DNA of 12,246 nucleotides from a virus (taxonomy: Duplodnaviria > Heunggongvirae > Uroviricota > Caudoviricetes), in the IMG/VR virus record IMGVR_UViG_2695420793_000011; one strand, 5' to 3'. Shown one piece after another: positions 523 through 4,894 of the stretch. Every line of letters begins with the position of its first letter. Position 1 is the first letter of the stretch. The notes beneath the pieces were generated by a model. It saw only the letters and a list, made by a program, of their open reading frames with translations. It searched no databases and had not been told where the DNA came from. Made by a program: the position numbers and the translations under genes.

Positions 523-843
523 TTATCCCCGATTTGAATCAGTATTCGCTTTCTTTATAGCATTTAATGCATCTGTGGCATTTTCAATGGTGCACCGTAA
601 CGAAATATCAAAATGTCCAAGCATTGCCAGTAACAAACCGATATTACCCATATCAATGCGCATGGCCTTTTCGTCATAGTCCTCATTTTCTGACGCATGC
701 CACATCAGGCTACCAATTGACGCAACAGCCATTGATATATTGTCAGTAGCCCCATCCGCAGCGGAATAAATCTTTTTAGCAATATCATGCTCACAGTTAA
801 AATGCGGATTAATCAGGTACTGGTAATTTGACATATCAGGCAT
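523..843 (-). CDS. hypothetical protein (106 aa), member of leftward small-gene operon
   Basis: ORF-track frame. Its ATG at 843-841 overlaps the stop of the upstream 67-aa frame (ATGCCTGA). No family recognised. Confidence 0.5.
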   Translation of the reverse strand: MPDMSNYQYLINPHFNCEHDIAKKIYSAADGATDNISMAVASIGSLMWHASENEDYDEKAMRIDMGNIGLLLAMLGHFDISLRCTIENATDALNAIKKANTDSNRG

Positions 844-1039
844 GGCACACCCCCTGACGAATACGGGCGGCGAATACCATCACGCAGCCAGCCGGGGATT
901 GCTGGCGTGCTTCCTGTTCGCTGGTGGCCACGATGTGAATCACGCGCGGTTGTGCGGTGCTCAGGGCGATAAAACGCCAGATGTATTTATTCAGGTTGTA
1001 CGAGTCCCGCCCTTGCGGGTGTATGGTATGATTTCTCAT
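836..1039 (-). CDS. hypothetical small protein (67 aa, MRNHTIHPQGRDSYNLNKYIWRF...), probable first gene of leftward operon
   Basis: This is the 3' portion of the 362-aa minus-strand track ORF. An internal ATG at 1039-1037 is preceded by GAGG about 8 nt upstream. The longer upstream extension runs through the AT-rich promoter region and antisense to better plus-strand genes. An alternative start at about 1132 is possible. Confidence 0.35.
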   Translation of the reverse strand: MRNHTIHPQGRDSYNLNKYIWRFIALSTAQPRVIHIVATSEQEARQQSPAGCVMVFAARIRQGVCHA

Positions 1040-1235
1040 AGCTGCCTCGATAATCTTGCTATCGTTGGTGGTTAGAAGCCCCGTTACTGCTCCTACAGTG
1101 CGGGGTTTCGTCGTTTCTGCACCTTGCATTAACAAGGTGTAAGTAACTTTATTTATAGGTGGCTTACATGTCAATGCTTTTATGTAAGACTTTTTATGTG
1201 TATATTGTCTTACACTTTCATTGAGAGGATTACAG
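1040..1235. promoter_or_regulatory. divergent promoter/operator region between the leftward small-gene operon and the rightward regulator-like genes
   Basis: AT-rich intergenic stretch with repeated TGTAAG(A/T)/CTTACA elements, including an inverted pair GTAAGAC...GTCTTAC around 1180-1215 and TTACATGTCAA at about 1164-1176. A short GC stem (CCCCG...CGGGG) at about 1080-1107 lies in the leftward leader. Confidence 0.45.
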
Positions 1236-1541
1236 ATGGCTACAGGTTCAAAAAACGCAAAATCACAATCACTGACAGCTCGGATCCCGCATGATGTTAT
1301 TGAAGGCATGGAATCCGTAAAACTGGACGGTGAAAGCAACGCCGGATTCATAGTAACCGCCATGCGCGGTGAAATCGCCCGCCGCCAGGCAGAAGGAAGC
1401 GGAGAAAACCTCCTGGTTTCTTCGCTCGATGCCCTAGCGCAGGTGGAAAAAATCGGAGTCAAAGCCGCCGAGGAGATCGGGCAACTCGTCACCGTCGCGC
1501 GTGAAGAACTCCAGCGACGCAAGGTCAAAGAGCAGGAATAG
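1236..1541 (+). CDS. small acidic protein, putative DNA-binding regulator of the island (family not confirmed)
   Basis: ATG at 1236 is preceded by GAGAGG at 1224-1229. Codon usage is E. coli-like and a strong intrinsic terminator follows the transcription unit. The N-terminal segment SLTARIPHDVIEGMESV is reminiscent of ribbon-helix-helix-type regulators, but this is an impression only. The track's longer start at 1221 lacks an SD. Confidence 0.5.
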   Translation: MATGSKNAKSQSLTARIPHDVIEGMESVKLDGESNAGFIVTAMRGEIARRQAEGSGENLLVSSLDALAQVEKIGVKAAEEIGQLVTVAREELQRRKVKEQE

Positions 1542-1598
1542 CCACTATCAGCGCCATAGTTTGAGGAACGCAGGCGCATTGCTTTACAGGACAGCACC

Positions 1599-1778
1599 AT
1601 GAGCGACACAGAATCAACCAAAACACCATCACCAACTCGTAAGAGACGACGCAAAAATATAGCGCATGAACATGAATCAGAAAGATTCGCACCTTGTTCG
1701 TTTGCTCTTGAGAAATTCCTTAAAGAGCACAGGAAAAAGCTCTCGTTGCAAACCTTGGAACGAACCAAATCTGACTGA
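1599..1778 (+). CDS. possible small basic protein (59 aa, MSDTESTKTPSPTRKRRRKNIAHEHESERF...)
   Basis: Found by manual translation; below the ORF-track size cutoff. It lies between the 1236-1541 gene and the plus-strand terminator. Weak SD and rare codons (AGA, CGA, AGG, ATA) make it uncertain. Confidence 0.25.
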   Translation: MSDTESTKTPSPTRKRRRKNIAHEHESERFAPCSFALEKFLKEHRKKLSLQTLERTKSD

Positions 1779-1845
1779 TCACATTGCCCACCAGCCGCAA
1801 ATGTGGCATTGTTGGCGATGCGTTCAAGTTTAGTGTGTATCCATT

Positions 1846-1877
1846 GGCGACCGCCCCCGGTCGCCTTTGTTTTATAT
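1846..1877 (+). terminator. intrinsic terminator for the rightward island transcription unit
   Basis: Perfect 8-bp GC-rich stem GGCGACCG / CGGTCGCC with CCCC loop (1846-1865), followed by TTTGTTTTATAT. Confidence 0.6.
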
Positions 1878-1892
1878 GTCATATGCTCCCCT

Positions 1893-2117
1893 TTACGCTG
1901 CCTTACCTGAATTAACGCGGTCACGGCTTTGCACCCAGTCCATAACTTCGGAAAGCAACCAGCCTACAGAACGCCCCCCAAGATTACGGCGAGACGGAAA
2001 GCCCCCTTTCTTCTCCAGTTCGTAGCGTGTAGTACGGCTGACGCCTGTTAACTTACGACATTCATCCTCACGAATTACGCGATCTGTTAGTGATTGAAAT
2101 TGTGTATTTTGATTCAT
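1893..2117 (-). CDS. alpA: AlpA-family phage/island transcriptional regulator (excisionase-like HTH)
   Basis: 74-aa translation with segment LTGVSRTTRYELEKKGGFPSRRNLGGRSVGWLLSEVMDWVQSR, matching the AlpA/Xis-type motif (GxSRsTiY...G.FP....lG.R.v.W...ev..W). Position downstream of a P4-type integrase is typical. Confidence 0.7.
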   Translation of the reverse strand: MNQNTQFQSLTDRVIREDECRKLTGVSRTTRYELEKKGGFPSRRNLGGRSVGWLLSEVMDWVQSRDRVNSGKAA

Positions 2118-2220: not shown

Positions 2221-3075
2221 TTAATTTTCATTAGATAAAATTTTTCTTATTTTTTCTAAAGAATCGCTGCGCATTATTTTTTCTAAGAAGGGTTTTACAG
2301 TCTGAACAATAGCAAAGGTGTCCTTTTCACCATCAGGATACAAAGATACGGCAAGCACCCCTAATGAAATTTTTCTATCTGTAGACAACTCCCAAGATAA
2401 TAAGTCAATTAATGGGATTATCTTATAATCAATAATTTTACGTCGTATGCTCTCCCAACTTCCTGCAATTGGTTTGTCTGGCTCAACAATTGAAAGTTCA
2501 CTACGCCATTTTGGTAATAGTTTTGTAAACGCTTCAATCAACTCATCATCTCTGTTATGTAGTAAGTCAACAGAAACAAGCATATTATCTAATGTATCAG
2601 AAAGGAGATTCACTGGTTCACGCATCACAGCCCAAAACATCCCATTATCTTCTGATATTAAACTTCCAACCATCTCATTATCTATGATGATTGGTTTATC
2701 CTTCCAATATCCTCTTTCCGCAGTCAGTTTATTAATCATTGATATATCAAACCTTGTTACAGGTTTAATTCCATCATCATAACTTAGCTCAATTAACTTC
2801 GGTTGCACTTTATGGTCATATTCTTTTTGTTTATCACAAAACCAATCGTCTTCTTTCAGCTCTCCAAATGGATCCCCGTAATTATTATGCAACGGGTATT
2901 CAGCACCAAACATAAATCCATATTCAGGCATCTCAGAATGTTTCATTGTTAAATCATCTTGTCGCCAATATAATTGGCGAAATAGATCTTTATCCGACAA
3001 GTTTTCTAGGCAATCATATTTGCCTAAATCAAATGACTTTGGTAAATCTTTTTTACTATTTACTTTTTTCGTCAT
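2221..3075 (-). CDS. hypothetical cytoplasmic protein (284 aa), AT-rich cargo gene between integrase and alpA; function unknown
   Basis: Long uninterrupted frame in visibly AT-rich DNA. Its ATG at 3075-3073 overlaps the integrase TGA stop at 3074-3072 (ATGA). No transmembrane segment or catalytic motif recognised by eye. Confidence 0.65.
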   Translation of the reverse strand: MTKKVNSKKDLPKSFDLGKYDCLENLSDKDLFRQLYWRQDDLTMKHSEMPEYGFMFGAEYPLHNNYGDPFGELKEDDWFCDKQKEYDHKVQPKLIELSYDDGIKPVTRFDISMINKLTAERGYWKDKPIIIDNEMVGSLISEDNGMFWAVMREPVNLLSDTLDNMLVSVDLLHNRDDELIEAFTKLLPKWRSELSIVEPDKPIAGSWESIRRKIIDYKIIPLIDLLSWELSTDRKISLGVLAVSLYPDGEKDTFAIVQTVKPFLEKIMRSDSLEKIRKILSNEN

Positions 3076-4292
3076 TGTATCCCTCTCAATATCACAATAT
3101 TTTCATTATATCCTGCAATCATATCAAGACGCTCAACCCATAGATTCAGTGCGTCCCGTTTCGCCTGCAAATAGCGTGAATGGTTATAGGTTTTTTGCTG
3201 ACCTGGCATCTGATGCGCTGTGATGTGCTCCACGATATGCGGATCGACACCTAAATCATTCAGCATAGTTGTAAACGTGTGTCGGAAATCATGCAGCGTC
3301 CAGTGTTCCTGCTTAAGCCGCTTATGCGCATTTCGTCCATATTGCGCCACCGTGGTATCTTTTTTCAGTTCGCCGAGTAATAACCCAGTGTGTGCGTTTT
3401 GCTCCACCAGCTTCTGAATGAACGGCAAAATACCATCAGGAATAGGTCGGAATATTGTTACCTTCGTTTTGCTGTGCTCTTTTGGCACTGTCCACAACAT
3501 TTCTTTCAGGTCCCATTCTTTGATCTCTGAAAGTCTGATCTCTGCCGTTCTGCACCCGAACACAATTAACAAGCGCATTAACGCACTGTAATAGGGAGCG
3601 AACACATCACCATCAATAGCGCGTAGAATTTCTTTTAGTTCGCTGTTGCTGTGCACTCTCTCGCGGATTTCTGCTCTCTTACCCACATCAGTAACGATCA
3701 AATCGTCCAGGGCGTTGCTAAACGCGTAGCGCCGCCTGCGGCAAAACTTTAGCGCCTGTTTGCATGTCTGCATGACATGGCCCGCTGCTACTGGTGCTTT
3801 TTTTCGTACGCGGTCAAAACATGCGATCCACTGCCTTGTATCACACTTATCAAGGGGAATTGCCCCAATATGGCAAATGATGTGCTTATCCATACGCTGC
3901 ACCAGCTTTATGTAATCTTTGCGGTTATCCTTCGCGTATTCCTCCAGCCAGTAGTTAATCGCTTCCTTCACCGTAACGGGTTTTAGTGCTTCCTGTACTG
4001 TGGCGCACAACTCATAACGGGGGTTTTTACCCTCAGCCAGCCATGCCCGGCACAGTGTGCGTTTTTCCCTTGCGGCTTTCAGCGACAATTCAGGGTAAGC
4101 CCCCAGCTTTAACCGCTCTGCGGCAACCTCACGGCCTCCCGTTCGGTACCGGAAATACCAGGTTAATTTGCCGCCCTTTGAGTGTTTAATCTCCAGCCCG
4201 CCCCCGTCGGAGTAAAAACGCTCTTTTTCTGCCTGGACAGCCGCCAATTTTTTTAACGTCGAATCGCTCAGTTTGTTTAGTGCTTTTCCCAC
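3072..4292 (-). CDS. int: P4-type tyrosine site-specific integrase
   Basis: 406 aa. The N-terminal arm-binding-type region (DGGGLEIKHSKGGKLTWYFRYRTGGREVAAERLKLGAYPELSLKAAREKR) resembles P4/CP4-57 integrases. The C-terminus has the HxxR box (HDFRHTF) and a candidate catalytic Tyr (KTYNHSRY). GTG start at 4292 with AGAGGA about 9 nt upstream. Confidence 0.85.
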   Translation of the reverse strand: MGKALNKLSDSTLKKLAAVQAEKERFYSDGGGLEIKHSKGGKLTWYFRYRTGGREVAAERLKLGAYPELSLKAAREKRTLCRAWLAEGKNPRYELCATVQEALKPVTVKEAINYWLEEYAKDNRKDYIKLVQRMDKHIICHIGAIPLDKCDTRQWIACFDRVRKKAPVAAGHVMQTCKQALKFCRRRRYAFSNALDDLIVTDVGKRAEIRERVHSNSELKEILRAIDGDVFAPYYSALMRLLIVFGCRTAEIRLSEIKEWDLKEMLWTVPKEHSKTKVTIFRPIPDGILPFIQKLVEQNAHTGLLLGELKKDTTVAQYGRNAHKRLKQEHWTLHDFRHTFTTMLNDLGVDPHIVEHITAHQMPGQQKTYNHSRYLQAKRDALNLWVERLDMIAGYNENIVILRGIQ

Positions 4293-4328
4293 TATCAGAT
4301 CCTCTTTTCAGTCCTCCAGCCTCAAAAA

Positions 4329-4352
4329 ACTGACCACACAACTGACCACACA
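4329..4352. repeat. tandem direct repeat (A)CTGACCACACA x2 immediately upstream of int
   Basis: Two 11-bp units CTGACCACACA at 4330-4340 and 4342-4352, 12-bp period. Followed at 4369-4386 by CGAACAAC x2 with 10-bp period, within an ACAA-rich tract. Confidence 0.5.
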
Positions 4353-4480
4353 TTTTGTTGAAGCTCTACGAACAACGACGAACAACAACAAACAAGAAAA
4401 CAGGATAATTTATTGTTTATCAAATACATACATAAACAACCACAAGCAACCCCGAACCACAAAAAACACTAAATGAGAAA

Positions 4481-4540
4481 ATACGGGTATTTCTCAGCCT
4501 TCACGCAGAAGGGCACCCCGAGTCGTTTGGTTGCGATGAT
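4481..4540 (-). ncRNA. 5' portion of the thiM TPP (thiamine pyrophosphate) riboswitch aptamer, truncated at the island junction
   Basis: The minus strand reads AACCAAACGACTCGGGGTGCCCTTCTGCGTGAAGGCTGAGAAATACCCGTAT, matching from memory the 5' half of the E. coli thiM leader including the conserved CUGAGA element. After ACCCGUAU the expected CACCUGAUCUGGAUAAUGCCAGCG is replaced by unrelated sequence running into int. Confidence 0.65.
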
Positions 4541-4621
4541 AAATCGCAGAGGAGGATGGTAATGTCCAGCGCACGCGTTGTAAACGAGGAAAAACGGCAG
4601 TTTTACAATCGCGTTAATAAA

Positions 4622-4894
4622 TTATTTGATATATGAATCCAGCACCTTCAGAACGACATCCAGATCTTCTTCACGTTTTAGCTCATCCCCCTGGTGAACG
4701 ATGTGTTCCGTCAGATGACCTTTAATCACTTCCCGTATCAGACCGTTTACCGCGCCACGGATAGCAGCAATCTGTTGTAAAACTGCAGCGCATTCGTGCG
4801 GCTCGTCGAGCATTTTCTTGAGCGCCACGACCTGGCCCTGAATCTTACTGGCACGCGCTTTCAGTTTCTGTTTATCACGGATTGTATGAGACAT
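4622..4894 (-). CDS. rcnR: RcnR, Ni/Co-responsive transcriptional repressor (CsoR/RcnR family)
   Basis: 90-aa translation recognised as RcnR ([52 protein letters not shown]...), divergent from rcnA. Confidence 0.9.

Follow-up and report, generated by a model that had tools for sequence, protein, structure and literature searches.

Attachment sites of EcCI224 and related elements

The core sites recognised by lambda Int are designated C-O-C' in attP and B-O-B' in attB, and each consists of a 7-bp overlap located between imperfect inverted core-type sites. The phage-inducible chromosomal island (PICI) EcCI224 was described previously (PMC10111431; Helper-embedded satellites from an integrase clade..., NAR Genom Bioinform 2023) and is listed as 'rcnR_thiM.EcCI224' in the supplementary attL/attR files, where the block AGAAATACCCGTAT is in upper case and the integrase-proximal junction is named attL. 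The helper-embedded PICIs examined in that study carry a doubled motif, tgTGTATTGCantgTGTATTGCa, whose copies lie at -81 and +132 relative to the centre of attP; it was suggested to bind integrase arm domains or AlpA and was stated not to have been detected in other PICIs (PMC10111431). Elements that integrate at tRNA, tmRNA and ffs 4.5S RNA (PMC12540744) genes use a conserved, partly symmetric RNA-encoding sequence as attB.

The stretch of DNA analysed here (the window, 12,246 nt) contains a palindrome at an island-chromosome junction, which probably represents the recombinant core at the integrase-proximal junction of EcCI224, inserted into the thiM TPP riboswitch aptamer by the tyrosine integrase of the satellite, with a 7-bp overlap and inverted half-sites predicted from the junction sequences. 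The element is the same as that in PMC10111431, with the same strain (Ecol_224), flanks and 14-bp block, though the earlier listing, unlike the model developed below, includes no overlap or half-site assignment. The palindrome finding is minor in itself, this being an ordinary, textbook-type tyrosine-integrase core site of an already catalogued satellite, with a block that had already been tabulated.

The complete genome of strain Ecol_224 (L001) is identical to the window through position 11839, and in it the island was found between thiM and rcnR with a length of 10,609 bp (~10.6 kb) core to core. The genes left of the junction in the window encode a tyrosine integrase (3072..4292, minus strand) with a P4-type arm-binding N-terminus (PF13356) and a PF00589 catalytic domain, followed by a DUF6387 protein, an AlpA-family excisionase/regulator (1893..2117, minus strand) and a DUF4222 protein. 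The distance from the core to the start of the integrase gene is 189 bp. To the right of the junction are rcnR (4622-4894, minus strand) and rcnA. In addition to Int and the AlpA-type excisionase/regulator, the island encodes an Icd-like protein, a D5/P4-alpha-type primase, a TerS-like DUF1441 protein and a ClpP-protease/major-capsid fusion, and nearly all of its annotated genes are on one strand, with two short CDSs on the other. From this gene content and shared orientation, EcCI224 has the organisation of Gram-negative PICIs, with a size in the 10-20 kb range, co-directional int, alpA and pri-rep genes and an incomplete virion gene set. The head genes gave nucleotide matches to mEp460/cdtI-like lambdoid phages, and none of the deposited phage records was found to cover the island, the matches being partial and confined to the head genes and the primase.

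Some further features of the window were recorded. The DUF6387 gene (2221-3075, minus strand) has a GC content of 33-35% and lies between int and alpA, a position like that of an accessory-cargo slot; a PADLOC search found no defence-system match for it. A mechanically called ORF of 362 aa (836-1924, minus strand) with a GTG start had no Pfam or PADLOC match and overlaps several short RefSeq genes, including that for the Icd-like protein, and YlcI/YnfO on the other strand, and its full length is unlikely to represent a real gene. The two minus-strand ORFs nearest the 3' end (yehE and yehD by synteny) are separated by an AT-rich gap, in which a perfect 18-bp palindrome (AAAGCCGAAATCATTTAT/ATAAATGATTTCGGCTTT; 11547-11582) with A and T runs on its flanks resembles a bidirectional intrinsic terminator. 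Over positions 11840-12246, the ungapped comparison with L001 breaks down, with 313 mismatches, which indicates an indel or variable segment near yehE, and the window may therefore derive from a different island-bearing strain.

The palindrome and the att core

A hairpin scan of the window identified the palindrome at 4474-4496, where the plus strand reads TGAGAAAATAC-GG-GTATTTCTCA. The original prediction had reported it at 4474-4497, one base too far at its end. It consists of 10 pairs, one bulge and a 2-nt GG loop, with the inner pairs extending from C4484-G4487 out to A4479-T4492 and the outer pairs, beyond the bulged A4478, from G4477-C4493 out to T4474-A4496. One arm had been described as riboswitch sequence and the other as mostly island sequence, and this agrees with the assignment of 4487-4496 to the riboswitch, 4474-4480 to the island and 4481-4484 to a core shared by both. 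The inner ATAC-GG-GTAT belongs to the riboswitch itself, being found in K-12 too, and is lengthened by six island-specific bases within 4474-4480.

When palindromes of comparable quality (10 or more pairs, no more than one bulge and a loop of up to 6) were counted in dinucleotide-shuffled versions of the 12.2-kb window, 0.67 were expected per window and 47% of the shuffles had at least one. The palindrome by itself is statistically unremarkable and is not rare window-wide; its non-random aspect is its location on the 14-bp identity block of the att site (4481-4494). By our own estimate, the chance of the six-base island extension would be ~3 x 4^-6, roughly 7e-4.

The 14-bp identity block (4481..4494) is ATACGGGTATTTCT, or AGAAATACCCGTAT in the thiM/int sense, and the block in upper case in the published files is thus its reverse complement. 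It was found at both ends of the island, at window positions 4481-4494 (L001 20282) and at L001 9673-9686, and the K-12 empty site has a single copy with contiguous flanks. Anchored on the block, the chromosomal flanks of both junctions matched the K-12 empty site at 60/60 positions on each side, and the island flanks at only 17/60 and 10/60. The original prediction had suggested that the inverted repeat is centred on the crossover point and may be the att core, and had named comparisons with the second island junction and with an empty site as its tests. The att-core reading came through both, as the same 14-bp core is present at the second junction and comparison with the empty site puts the junction at 4481-4494, within the palindrome. 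A direct repeat at both ends, an empty site with one copy and an adjacent recombinase gene are the features of a tyrosine-integrase att site, and an identical identity block was independently listed for EcCI224 in a supplementary table (PMC10111431).

A 701-bp query across the junction gave full-length matches in 72 complete E. coli genomes out of 5,426; the far junction, on the thiM side, was found in 75 genomes of this set. The island is present in some and absent from others of otherwise syntenic genomes, which lends indirect support to recombination. The exact attP pattern had no match in viral contigs or metagenome contigs, and a generalised attP-only pattern gave 7 matches in metagenomes, all with unrelated flanks and about as many as chance would produce with 19 specified bases. 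As no excised attP form was detected in the viral or metagenome collections, recombination activity of the EcCI224 core is inferred. The attP is predicted to contain ...TTAGTAAGAAATACCCGTATTTTCTCATTTAG...

Candidate arm-type sites were found in a co-oriented repeat of 74-76 bp, with the integrase-proximal copy at 4320..4395 (minus strand) and a second copy at ~L001 9745-9819, which correspond to -140 to -66 and +92 to +168 relative to the centre of the core in the predicted attP. Each copy includes a tandemly doubled GTGTGGTCAG, seen on the plus strand as CTGACCACAC at 4330-4339 and 4342-4351 in the integrase-proximal copy, plus a doubled TGTTCGT. In two Salmonella relatives, both halves of the doubled GTGTGGTCAG were changed in concert to GTGAGGTCAG. 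The doubled arm motifs are likely to serve as arm-type sites bound by integrase or AlpA. Like the helper-embedded PICIs, EcCI224 has two co-oriented copies of a doubled motif, one in each attP arm and asymmetrically placed (-95/-83 and +137/+149), but the motif is GTGTGGTCAG and is set within the longer arm repeat.

Predicted overlap and half-sites

A sibling PICI was used as a second att system. Its integrase (P0008) is 66% identical to that of EcCI224, and 365 complete E. coli genomes were found to carry it between yljB and clpS. Like EcCI224, it has the same capsid/TerS late module and is co-oriented with the downstream gene, in this case clpS. The junctions (L019 16300-16350 and 27170-27200) and the K-12 empty site (L020 235-275) define an 11-bp identity block, ATGATAGTTAT, for this element; a perfect 9-bp inverted repeat, TAGATGATA/TATCATCTA, was also observed at its junction. 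A further candidate (L010; integrase P0027, beside dppA) was left out as a third test system because it lacks an empty site.

All placements of a 6-8-bp overlap inside both identity blocks were searched, and the agreement of the eight flanking 9-mers was scored. The best solution was a 7-bp overlap, ACCCGTA in EcCI224 and GATAGTT in the clpS sibling, with a score of 53/72 (runner-up 47, mean 40). The search was extended to five systems by adding the phoQ, tqsA and smrA PICIs from published att files, and among 7,824 registers the same solution was obtained with a score of 130/180 (runner-up 123, mean 92.4, SD 5.7), 6.6 SD above the mean. The switch from system-specific overlap to conserved arm coincides exactly with the predicted boundary in each of the five systems. 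The half-sites have T6 in 20/20, T2 in 19/20 and A8 in 18/20, giving a consensus over the five systems of (A/T)TTTAT(C/A)AT, which is inflated by the AT-richness of all the sequences compared. The chromosomal half-sites, which are mutually non-homologous, share AT at positions 1-2, T6 and A8.

Strand exchange in EcCI224 would accordingly be placed in the 7-bp overlap at window 4482-4488 (4482..4488; TACGGGT on the plus strand, ACCCGTA in sense), the best register over two and over five att systems. This overlap would be flanked by two inverted 9-bp integrase half-sites, one chromosomal and the other island-borne. The island core-type half-site (4473..4481, minus strand; TTTTCTCAT in sense) would form the left arm of the palindrome and has a leave-one-out P of ~0.002, and the chromosomal core-type half-site (4489..4497, plus strand; ATTTCTCAG) would form the right arm, with P ~0.01. 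ATTTCTCAG is the complement of the riboswitch sequence CUGAGAAAU, which includes the conserved CUGAGA motif. At the level of sequence, inverted core-type half-sites thus surround an overlap of 6-8 bp within the identity block, and the junction reads as a near-palindrome because both half-sites approximate the family consensus. The interval covered by this model (4473-4497) is almost exactly that flagged in the original prediction. The inverted repeat around the crossover is retained from that proposal, but the crossover is better placed in the 7-bp overlap, and the functional arms are probably the 9-bp half-sites at 4473-4481 and 4489-4497 rather than bulged arms of 10-11 nt.

A weight matrix was derived from the four systems excluding EcCI224, and with it three EcCI224 half-sites gave P values of ~0.002, 0.01 and 0.014. 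The fourth, TCACCTGAT on the thiM side, does not match the consensus (P ~0.25). Of the 236 positions scored in the intergenic region, the matrix alone placed the true attB register 7th, and hence the fit of the half-sites does not explain the choice of target. The half-site model is supported but alone gives no account of target choice, which must also depend on overlap identity and on preferences specific to the clade. Of the five systems, only EcCI224 has a C at position 5 of all four half-sites, and it may be speculated that this C marks a specificity shift of EcCI224.

The integrase-side arms of EcCI224 (TTTTCTCAT-TTAGTG) and the clpS sibling (ATTTATCAT-CTAGTG) are homologous, and homologous arms were found in four other PICIs, namely EcCICFT073 (phoQ), EcCI042 (tqsA), EcCIIHE3034 (clpS/cspD) and EcCIEC2733 (smrA). 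EcCI224 shares with these the conserved integrase-side arm TTTTATCAT-TTAGTGTTTTTTG and the same predicted geometry, the likeness of the five integrase-side arms reflecting descent and so not counting as independent evidence. In contrast, the overlap sequence and the target of EcCI224 are entirely different from those of the four reference PICIs, and among the five only EcCI224 targets a riboswitch aptamer. As in lambda, the EcCI224 identity block holds the predicted 7-bp overlap between inverted half-sites, here of 9 bp, one bacterial and one from the element, and arm-type repeats and an excisionase (AlpA) accompany the core. Unlike lambda Int, the EcCI224 integrase has a P4-type arm-binding domain (PF13356) and the half-site consensus is (A/T)TTTAT(C/A)AT, with the positions of binding and cleavage predicted computationally.

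The thiM riboswitch as integration target

The intact K-12 site was identified as a TPP riboswitch (RF00059) with a score of 71.2 bits against a gathering threshold of 54.3. When the window was searched with Rfam, no match was found at the gathering threshold, and permissive settings revealed a partial match of 20.6 bits. This is the retained 5' half of the thiM TPP aptamer (4481..4530, minus strand), truncated by the insertion and made up of the P1 5' strand, P2, P3 and CUGAGA. The half on the thiM side scored 33.3 bits, with P1 5', P2 5' and P3 missing. Neither half reached the score of at least 54.3 bits taken to indicate a complete aptamer, and the riboswitch is therefore split. As the predicted overlap falls in the 3' strand of P2 and the beginning of J2/4, the split lies between P2/P3 and P4/P5; the insertion parts the pyrimidine-sensor helices (P2/P3) from the pyrophosphate-sensor helices (P4/P5), and these are not restored by the island. 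The identity block is just 14 bp with no replacement segment, which differs from target-restoring att sites of the tRNA or icd type. Like integration at tRNA, tmRNA and ffs (PMC12540744) genes, EcCI224 uses a conserved, partly symmetric RNA-encoding sequence as attB, but unlike in those cases the target is a cis-regulatory aptamer rather than an RNA gene, and it is left split.

The word 'riboswitch' does not appear in the paper and supplements of PMC10111431, where the site is labelled only as the rcnR/thiM intergenic region. In the open-access literature, no report was found of thiM or a riboswitch as an att site or of a mobile element splitting a riboswitch, and EcCI224 was named in the main text of no paper found. 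The element and its att identity block were already known; that the target is a riboswitch, which is cut in two, has apparently gone unremarked in the open-access literature searched.

Integrases sharing 67-74% identity with that of EcCI224 were found in Salmonella contigs at the equivalent position beside rcnB. The four Salmonella loci read have a common junction, ...GGCTGAGAAATACCCGTAT|TTTTCTAA..., with the island arm variants TTTTCTAAC or TTTTCTAAT, and the same junction with integrases that differ to this extent suggests that the riboswitch target is conserved across a diverged integrase clade. The Salmonella island arm (TTTTCTAA) is one base off, making the palindrome weaker, and the near-perfect symmetry is not conserved. 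Among species-representative genomes, an integrase-based locus search yielded no confirmed relative and a DNA pattern specific for the far junction gave no match.

A promoter-like site (4556..4584, minus strand; TTTACA-17-TACCAT), found by a consensus scan only and presumed to be the thiM promoter, is kept on the rcnR side and is now directed through the att core into int. The island genes are co-oriented with it, and no terminator was predicted between it and int. The thiMD genes are separated from this presumed promoter by the 10.6-kb island, and the thiM and thiD ORFs are intact. In the corresponding thiM-side region (L001 9590-10100, outside the window), no consensus promoter was found in the last 700 bp of the island, which include a terminator-like hairpin (L001 10082-10057, minus strand). 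In the predicted fold of the leftover thiM leader, GGGAAG is paired with the anti-SD and AGGAG is free. In the TPP-free, translation-ON form of the thiM riboswitch, nt 71-86 pair with nt 108-125 (PMC1920254), and the modelled fold of the leftover leader would correspond to this state.

Three other accounts of the palindrome were considered. The outer-arm symmetry could be incidental, with the 14-bp block serving as the att core and the TGAGAAA/TTTCTCA match arising by coincidence or as an AT-rich by-product and not used as half-sites. Such an origin would fit the ~0.67 comparable palindromes expected per shuffled window, the mismatch in the island arm of the Salmonella relatives, the thiM-side half-site that is off consensus and the 7th rank of 236 given to the true site by the matrix. 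However, the five-system register search selected exactly the inverted-half-site geometry, at 6.6 SD above the mean register, the non-homologous chromosomal half-sites agree at positions 1-2 (AT), 6 (T) and 8 (A), and we estimate the conditional chance of the island extension at <1e-3. The five-system result makes coincidence in the outer arms less likely, and it is a possible but unlikely explanation.

Both of the accounts in which the palindrome or its neighbourhood acts in RNA are considerably less probable. A hairpin in a chimeric transcript from the thiM promoter, for example a terminator or attenuator shielding int from host read-through, would be in keeping with the direction of the promoter-like site (4584-4556, minus strand) through the junction toward int and with the U-rich stretch, UUUAGUGUUUUUUG, directly after the hairpin, but the hairpin is weak (-5.9 kcal/mol, with a 7-bp AU-rich stem), lies in a 113-nt context that is not unusually stable (z = -0.04) and offers competing pairings, and was not called as a terminator-like site. 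An intrinsic terminator has a stable GC-rich hairpin and a U tract, and a role of this kind is very improbable and was rejected. The original prediction had also offered as an alternative that the element carries a partial mimic of the riboswitch segment, by which the riboswitch and thiM regulation would be rebuilt after integration as at many tRNA and icd sites. Although the far island end places GTAAGAAATACCC, which resembles the native GCTGAGAAATACCC, beside the 3' half, only TAAGAAAT is supplied next to the core, the identity block is short, and nowhere in the island-bearing locus did an Rfam match reach the gathering score, the thiM-side aptamer (33.3 against 54.3 bits) lacking P1 5', P2 5' and P3. 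A functional mimic is not supported, and restoration of the riboswitch, which is scarcely credible, was likewise rejected. The preferred reading is that of an att core with inverted half-sites in a split riboswitch.

ThiD is required for de novo thiamine synthesis, and carriage of the island could therefore have a metabolic phenotype; island carriers may have an altered thiamine physiology. A broader and tentative proposal, which we consider rather doubtful as a whole, is that integration rewires two units. The thiMD genes would be cut from their promoter and from TPP sensing, with the leader of any transcript that still reached them locked in the translation-ON state, and the constitutive thiM promoter with the 5' half-aptamer would drive int and the early genes. 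Carriage would then alter thiamine physiology and excision would restore control, and the EcCI224 integrase clade would have moved toward half-sites with C at position 5 so as to make use of the CUGAGA motif that all TPP riboswitches share. If this were true, carriers would be dependent on external thiamine, or ThiM/ThiD would be deregulated in them.

A riboswitch target that was catalogued as an intergenic region is thus split in ~1.3% of complete E. coli genomes, and also in Salmonella by elements with diverged integrases. The core-site model would apply to a whole clade of Gram-negative PICI integrases, and could help to predict or re-target their integration sites.
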